Counted from the first letter of the stretch, positions 5,495 through 5,638 are shown. The stretch is 64,000 nucleotides of DNA from Patellaria atrata CBS 101060 (GCA_010093705.1 MU006091.1:1178001-1242000), one strand, 5' to 3'. Made by a program: numbers and translations. The notes: generated from the sequence alone by a model not told the origin.

Positions 5495-5625
5495 GGGCGA
5501 CTGGTTTAGTGGTATAATACCCCCTTAGCATGGGGGTGGTCCGGGGTTGTAAGTTGAATATCTTAGAAAATATCTTCTTCTGTGCAAGTTACTAACATGT
5601 GTAAAAGCGATTCCCCGGTCGTCCA
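5495..5625 (+). tRNA. tRNA-Ala: tRNA-Ala(AGC), interrupted in the T loop by a 59-nt insertion (5549-5607)
   Basis: Acceptor GGGCGAC(5495-5501)/GTCGTCC(5618-5624) with G3:U70 Ala identity pair and discriminator A5625. A-box-like TGGTTTAGTGG. Anticodon stem CCCCC/GGGGG, loop TTAGCAT (AGC 5527-5529). T stem CGGGG/CCCCG. Spliced length 72 nt. Confidence 0.95.
5549..5607 (+). other. Spliceosomal-type (GT-AG) intron within tRNA-Ala T loop
   Basis: Donor GTAAGT (5549-5554), branch TACTAAC (5590-5596), acceptor AAG ending 5607; 59 nt, similar to the mRNA introns in this window. Removal gives GGGG-TT|CGATT-CCCC. Confidence 0.85.
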
Positions 5626-5632
5626 AAATCCC

Positions 5633-5638
5633 TTTTTT
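5633..5638 (+). terminator. Pol III terminator (T6) of the tRNA-Ala gene
   Basis: TTTTTT 7 nt downstream of the tRNA discriminator base. Confidence 0.75.

Follow-up and report, generated by a model that had tools for sequence, protein, structure and literature searches.

We found that a nuclear tRNA-Ala(AGC) gene of the fungus Patellaria atrata CBS 101060, a Dothideomycete of the order Patellariales, is split within its T loop by a 59-nt insert that looks like a spliceosomal intron. Judging from its sequence, this insert is very probably a spliceosome-type intron by origin. By the same kind of evidence, we estimate at roughly 45% the probability that the gene acquired a U2-type GT-AG intron between nucleotides 55 and 56, that this intron can be spliced, and that the gene is still used. 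We suggest, more tentatively, that maturation of this tRNA may depend on the spliceosome, with the T loop and the B-box sequence coming into existence only after mRNA-type splicing. The locus lies in a 64-kb stretch of DNA that was analysed as a whole and is referred to here as the window.

Anatomy of the split tRNA gene

The tRNA-Ala(AGC) gene extends over positions 5495-5625 on the plus strand, and the 59 nt that interrupt it are located between nucleotides 55 and 56, in the T loop (Table 1). All parts of the tRNA and of the insert that the original prediction had described could be located as it described them. When positions 5549-5607 were removed in silico, ARAGORN called a 72-base tRNA-Ala(agc) under all three option sets used, in agreement with the earlier proposal that excision from GT to AG restores a tRNA of 72 nt. 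The excised product has a 7-bp acceptor stem that includes G3:U70, anticodon and T stems of 5 bp each and a 7-nt T loop, and its D stem contains one G-U pair and one T-T mismatch. Both the cloverleaf and the alanine identity elements, G3:U70 and A73, are present only after intron removal. Reading of the sequence further showed the excision borders to be unique, because a shift by a single base in either direction alters the product.

Table 1. Features of the split tRNA-Ala(AGC) gene, in window coordinates
Feature	Position	Strand	Description
tRNA exon 1	5495..5548	+	54 nt; acceptor 5' strand, D arm, anticodon arm (AGC); from sequence and the ARAGORN cloverleaf after excision
tRNA exon 1, 3' part	within 5495..5548	+	Variable loop, T-stem 5' strand, T54-T55 at the end
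Spliceosome-type intron	5549..5607	+	59 nt, GC 0.29
5' splice site GTAAGT	5549..5554	+	From sequence; fits the fungal consensus GTRNGT
Branch-site heptamer TACTAAC	5590..5596	+	Branch A at 5595, 12 nt from the intron end; fits CTRAY
3' splice site AAG	5605..5607	+	First AG downstream of the branch site
tRNA exon 2	5608..5625	+	C56 to the end of the T loop, T-stem 3' strand, acceptor 3' strand, discriminator A (5625)
A-box region, intact	5502..5512	+	tRNA positions 8-19 (numbering of PMC3978253)
B box, first 4 nt	5545..5548	+	Positions 52-55; cut off from the rest by the intron
B box, last 7 nt	5608..5614	+	Positions 56-62
T6 run, Pol III terminator-like	5633..5638	+	7 nt past the discriminator

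A second run of six T residues follows at 5659-5664. Within the intron, the 8-nt direct repeat AATATCTT occurs at 5557-5564 and again at 5569-5576, 12 nt apart, and may represent a small tandem duplication. A protein-coding reading of the locus was unsupported, since the overlapping open reading frames at 5315-5509 (plus strand) and 5525-5839 (minus strand) had no Pfam match at E values up to 1.

Standard searches did not report the gene, as the original prediction had anticipated. ARAGORN found no tRNA across the whole 64-kb window and made no call at the uncut locus under any of the three option sets. With Rfam, no RNA family was matched anywhere in the window at the gathering thresholds, and at a permissive threshold the tRNA model scored 15.3 bits at the uncut locus, compared to a cut-off of 29. 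For tRNAscan-SE 2.0, the available description mentions a search for noncanonical introns with respect to archaeal bulge-helix-bulge (BHB) introns only. A group I or group II self-splicing intron was considered and rejected: the weak tRNA match was the only one in Rfam, and the insert has 59 nt where hundreds would be expected.

Non-random character of the insert

An in-silico scan in which candidate introns are excised and the product is searched again for tRNAs had been proposed for this genome and its relatives, and we ran it on the window. All segments of the form GTNNGT..CTRAY..AG with a length of 40-150 nt were collected from both strands (n = 316; 152 on the plus and 164 on the minus strand), and each excision product was submitted to ARAGORN. 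A tRNA was obtained in a single case, which was the split tRNA-Ala locus itself. Among the 316 candidates, GTAAGT was present in 27 and TACTAAC in 2, and the only candidate containing both was the tRNA intron; the heptamer TACTAAC occurs six times in the window when both strands are counted.

The splice signals were further compared with chance by shuffling the 59 nt of the insert 2,000,000 times. Minimal intron signals appeared at the right places in 72 of these shuffles, and the combination of GTAAGT, TACTAAC and AG appeared in none. Consistently, an analytic estimate based on the base frequencies of the window gave a chance probability of 3.6e-8 for the joint signals. From the excision scan and the shuffles together we conclude that the insert is an intron-type sequence rather than random filler.

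Comparison with neighbouring introns of the host

As a reference for the splice signals of this fungus we used eight homology-supported introns from the neighbourhood, 49-101 nt long. Five of them (49-56 nt) were obtained by mapping the 480-aa ARMT1-like protein onto the window, and the remaining three (53-101 nt) by aligning two SET-domain homologues. With its 59 nt and a GC content of 0.29, the tRNA intron falls inside the host range for both properties (49-101 nt and 0.28-0.43). In host candidates measured in the same way, the branch A is mostly located 9-14 nt from the intron end, the corresponding distance in the tRNA intron being 12 nt.

The signals themselves were more distinctive. The eight host donors read GTGAGT, GTCAGT, GTGAGC, GTGATT, GTAAGT (twice), GTAAGA and GTACGC, and a CTAAC branch site was found in one of the eight introns, the full TACTAAC in none. 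Donor and branch site taken jointly are thus stronger in the tRNA intron than in every one of these neighbours. Donor and branch site at full consensus would be expected if efficient splicing had been selected for in a poor context. The acceptor behaves differently, since all eight host introns end in YAG (six TAG and two CAG) and none in AAG. The AAG of the tRNA intron is therefore atypical for this genome, yet it is the first AG past the branch site and has no competing AG. The earlier reading of donor and branch site as consensus-perfect held, and the departure of the acceptor, which it had not raised, is to be added as a correction.

No unusual structure could be predicted for the intron. 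Its fold reached -7.0 kcal/mol (z = -0.62), 49 of 200 shuffled sequences folded at least as well, and three neighbouring introns had equally unremarkable predicted folds. A fresh introner-like element was rejected as an explanation on the basis of this fold, of the length of 59 nt and of the absence of a second copy of the intron from the 64-kb window.

DNA support, related genes and genomic setting

We examined two sequencing runs of one sample, both of which behave as DNA and may be the source data of the assembly itself. Independently built Logan contigs of both runs span positions 3500-9500 without a single difference, at contig depths over the locus of 456.6 and 316.6-319.2. The re-assembled contigs, which possibly go back to the same source data, thus carry the insertion. 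In one of the runs (X2), the assembly graph forks 9 nt before the tRNA begins (5457-5486), where a 55-nt contig with a depth of 87.3 continues into 25 unrelated letters. We take these letters to resemble the linker of a mate-pair library, so that a library artefact is the probable cause of the fork.

A paralogous tRNA-Ala(AGC) gene was present at genome depth (on a contig of run X2 of 9852 nt with a depth of 318, seen to 30 letters beyond the match). It differs from exon 1 in 2 of 36 letters over 5495-5530, so that exon 1 is of the family type, and it shows a one-letter difference in the T stem. The T loop of this paralogue is uninterrupted, and a 10-nt insert directly follows its nucleotide 37, indicating that ordinary tRNA introns occupy the canonical position in this fungus. 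As the genome has one or more further tRNA-Ala(AGC) genes whose T loop is uninterrupted, loss of the split copy would be tolerated. In contigs of low depth (29.7 and 5.25) that match 5502-5548, a tRNA-Ala(AGC) lacks the intron and has another acceptor stem, which is fully paired; such depths point to a second organism in the sample and not to a paralogue.

Apart from the main contig, none of the contig matches listed (down to 30 nt, from records that may be filtered) carried the intron at 90% identity or more. This is a weak hint that the intron probably did not arise as a fresh copy of a donor intron still retained in the genome. We also searched more widely for comparable genes. An exon-anchored pattern with the intron left unconstrained matched seven loci in metagenomes, all of them, on reading, GC-rich and unrelated; three of these seven contain a tRNA-like sequence whose T loop is uninterrupted, the match downstream of it being due to chance. 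A T-loop pattern with GTAAGT..CTAAC..AG gave two matches in prokaryote contigs, neither of which became a tRNA after excision, and none in viral contigs, both collections containing almost no fungal DNA.

The split tRNA lies outside coding sequence, about 340 nt upstream of the start codon (5967) of a gene on the same strand that encodes an ARMT1-like (DUF89) damage-control phosphatase (Pfam PF01937, 5967-7668, plus strand). This gene consists of six exons, and its five introns measure 49-56 nt and end in TAG without exception. Its six exact segments encode precisely the 480-aa protein that NCBI lists for P. atrata CBS 101060; its open reading frame is 99% identical to the P. atrata protein, the next best matches being at 77-78%, which identifies the source of the window as this species or a genome almost identical to it. 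A KAE1/TsaD gene, whose product acts in tRNA t6A synthesis, is found on the minus strand at 7725-8962, about 2 kb from the split tRNA, and this proximity is probably a coincidence.

Promoter elements and transcription

The promoter boxes were scored against the generally known A-box and B-box consensus motifs. The A box shows one mismatch, and positions 52-62 of the spliced sequence fit the B-box consensus at all specified positions. In the DNA, the B box is divided into 4 and 7 nt, a point that the original prediction had not raised, so that the conserved C56 and C61 are set 59 nt away from G52-T55. Pol III normally uses the internal A box (positions 8-19) and B box (positions 52-62) of tRNA genes, which are bound by TFIIIC (PMC3978253, PMC11724288). 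Because a contiguous B box has been lost in the DNA, normal TFIIIC-dependent transcription by Pol III is doubtful.

No substitute B box with up to two mismatches was found between 5359 and 6193, the intron included. At this tolerance the window contains 50 matches, compared to 57.8 expected by chance, and those nearest to the tRNA lie at 5348-5358 and 6194-6204. The former, GTTTCGAGTCC, was rejected as a substitute since it has one mismatch at an invariant G, precedes the A box and is no more than chance would supply. This B-box-like 11-mer is found 147 nt upstream of the tRNA start, directly past a GGTAAGT. The 50 nt that precede the tRNA are AT-rich, but inspection of their sequence revealed no canonical TATA box.

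The 131-nt precursor (5495-5625) contains no run of four or more T residues, and the T6 at 5633-5638 then follows. Pol III could thus read through to this T6; by a rough estimate, the chance expectation for such an absence is about one half. Expression of tRNA genes with interrupted boxes has been described in Cyanidioschyzon merolae, an alga in which homologues of Tfc1 and Tfc3 could not be identified and which depends on TATA-like promoters upstream of the genes (PMC3978253).

Relation to known introns in noncoding RNA genes

The closest parallel is provided by the mRNA-type introns in the U6 genes of Schizosaccharomyces pombe and other fungi (Tani and Ohshima 1989, 1991; Canzler et al. 2016, cited in PMC5855946). 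These, too, are small noncoding RNA genes of the Pol III type with a short GT-AG intron and a branch site in a highly conserved part, and reverse splicing has been proposed as the origin there as well (PMC5855946). Several differences are nevertheless apparent. A tRNA, unlike U6, has no known place near the catalytic centre of the spliceosome. The Schizosaccharomyces U6 intron carries a B-box match (Frendewey et al. 1990, cited in PMC5855946), whereas the tRNA intron destroys the B box. Finally, U6 splicing has been demonstrated in S. pombe (PMC5855946), in contrast to the split tRNA, which is known as a gene sequence.

Spliceosomal introns have also been described in the U1, U2 and U5 snRNA genes of Rhodotorula hasegawae (Takahashi 1993, 1996, cited in PMC5855946) and in ascomycete rRNA genes (Bhattacharya 2000, cited in PMC5855946). 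Like the split tRNA, these are non-mRNA hosts, some of which are not transcribed by Pol II, but the class of the host RNA differs. Reverse splicing is discussed as the route for the snRNA and rRNA introns (PMC5855946) and for intron transposition generally (PMC11146597), and the available text of PMC5855946 on snRNA and rRNA introns does not mention a tRNA case.

Interruption of the B box by an intron that standard finders miss is known from the T-arm introns of archaea, C. merolae and nucleomorphs (PMC4090602, PMC3978253). Those introns are defined by a bulge-helix-bulge and cut by the endonuclease, whereas the split tRNA shows no canonical BHB and carries spliceosome-type signals. A resemblance also exists to pseudogenes with D- or T-arm insertions (PMC4090602), in which, as here, one member of a synonymous family has a T-arm insertion; the split tRNA differs from them by its complete consensus intron, its exact borders and its defect-free exons.

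The same class of fungi to which the host belongs harbours introner-like elements, spliceosomal introns of Dothideomycetes that multiply into new sites and then degenerate to regular introns (PMC3609843). Such elements occur in many copies, exceed regular introns in length and fold stably (PMC3609843), in contrast to the short and weakly folded tRNA intron, and they are described in genes, with no tRNA gene mentioned in the available text of PMC3609843.

A possible course of origin, transcription and splicing

We infer the following course of events for a split gene that is still used. An excised host intron would have been reverse-spliced into a tRNA-Ala transcript, which was then copied into DNA and recombined into the gene. 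Since the B box is split in the DNA, transcription must proceed without normal TFIIIC binding. It may start from the A box together with the AT-rich region upstream, or the locus may be reached by Pol II reading through the 1.2-kb gap that precedes the neighbouring gene. Spliceosome-dependent maturation would accordingly involve either a B-box-independent initiation by Pol III or a Pol II transcript trimmed by RNase P and RNase Z.

Any such transcript would keep its acceptor, anticodon and T stems, the intron forming a large, weakly structured T loop, and all three stems are indeed retained in the predicted centroid structure of the precursor. GTAAGT would be recognised by pairing with U1 and TACTAAC by pairing with U2, and the acceptor would be the first AG, located 12 nt beyond the branch A. 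Ligation of T55 to C56 would then recreate the T loop. Enzymes and factors that need the native T loop could act only at this stage, with trimming of the ends, modification of the T loop, addition of CCA and export all expected to come after splicing.

A used gene or a disabled copy

A number of observations favour a gene that is still used. No defect is seen in its 72 exon nucleotides, its halves join exactly, the signals that would pair with U1 and U2 are both at full consensus in a genome in which this is rare, there is no competing AG, and the insert has the look of a regular intron, for which, as a weak point, no near-identical donor was seen. The precursor has no T run of four or more and a T6 soon after its end, and spliceosomal introns in Pol III-transcribed U6 and in rRNA genes provide a precedent (PMC5855946). 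Weighing against continued use are the split B box without a substitute, the lack of a canonical TATA box, the AAG acceptor, the fact that this is a single case and the presence of another tRNA-Ala(AGC) gene.

The same facts make it quite possible that the locus is instead a recently disabled copy, in which intron transposition hit one member of a multi-copy tRNA-Ala(AGC) family and which is barely transcribed and too young to have decayed. Reverse splicing yields exact borders whether or not the product is used, so the clean junction is equally compatible with such a copy, as are the split B box for which no replacement was found, the unusual acceptor and the paralogue, at least one at genome depth, whose T loop is uninterrupted. 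Insertions in the D or T arm of eukaryotic tRNA genes are usually read as pseudogenes (PMC4090602), active intron gain is known in Dothideomycetes (PMC3609843), and very many windows were screened, so that a rare fresh event can surface. A disabled copy fits less well with the lack of any defect in the 72 exon nucleotides, the donor or the branch signal, and with a donor and branch site jointly stronger than in all eight neighbouring introns. It is also at odds with a short, weakly structured intron that resembles an old regular intron rather than a fresh introner-like element, and with the absence of an intron copy of at least 90% identity among the DNA contig matches listed, the latter being a weak argument against very recent copying.

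Two further explanations fared much worse. Eukaryotic tRNA introns are normally located at 37/38 and are cut by the TSEN/Sen endonuclease. We consider it highly improbable that the insert is a noncanonical intron cut by this enzyme, as in archaea, C. merolae and nucleomorphs, with merely coincidental splice motifs, even though T-arm introns (e.g., at 53/54, 56/57 and 59/60) exist in archaea and some algae (PMC4090602). A 4-bp helix of two A-U and two G-U pairs can be drawn between intron nucleotides 4-7 and exon 2 nucleotides 2-5, but by our own estimate a 4-bp match among 16 offsets has about a 1-in-4 probability by chance. The arrangement is not a canonical bulge-helix-bulge, with a 5' bulge of 5 nt instead of 3 and no outer helix, and the joint splice signals would have to arise by chance with a probability of about 4e-8. 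The position at 55/56 is not the eukaryotic one, and it is directly after nucleotide 37 that the insert of the paralogue sits. That the split gene is an assembly artefact or a chance resemblance is scarcely credible: the only point found in its favour is that the supporting DNA runs may be the assembly's own data, and against it stand the Logan re-assembly of two runs, which spans the locus with no differences, and, for chance, the single tRNA among 316 excisions and the signals absent from 2,000,000 shuffles.

Novelty and implications

The original prediction knew of no spliceosomal intron in a nuclear tRNA, subject to a check of the literature, and our search is in line with this. In full-text literature that mostly excludes subscription journals, and in the available text of reviews up to 2026, we came across no tRNA gene with a spliceosomal intron. 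The word stem "spliceosom" is absent from the available text of 2014 reviews of tRNA gene and intron diversity (including PMC4090602), and a 2023 tRNA review mentions the spliceosome once in its available text, as a contrast (PMC10275265). According to textbook knowledge and recent reviews, tRNA splicing does not use the spliceosome (PMC10275265, PMC13149111). What is new here is the tRNA host, since mRNA-type introns were already known in U6, U2, U5 and U1 snRNA genes and in ascomycete rRNA genes.

The finding bears on the annotation of fungal genomes in that eukaryotic tRNA finders have no search for genes of this kind, and more of them may hide there. Should the split gene prove to be dead, it would be a clean footprint of the transposition of a spliceosomal intron into a Pol III transcript, and would bear on what determines the insertion of new introns in noncoding RNAs, a question listed as unclear in PMC5855946. 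If the intron is spliced, it would reveal a new maturation route and show that a contiguous B box is not indispensable for a working tRNA gene. Removal of a tRNA intron by the spliceosome would, if true, be a third route beside the endonuclease/ligase pathway and self-splicing introns.
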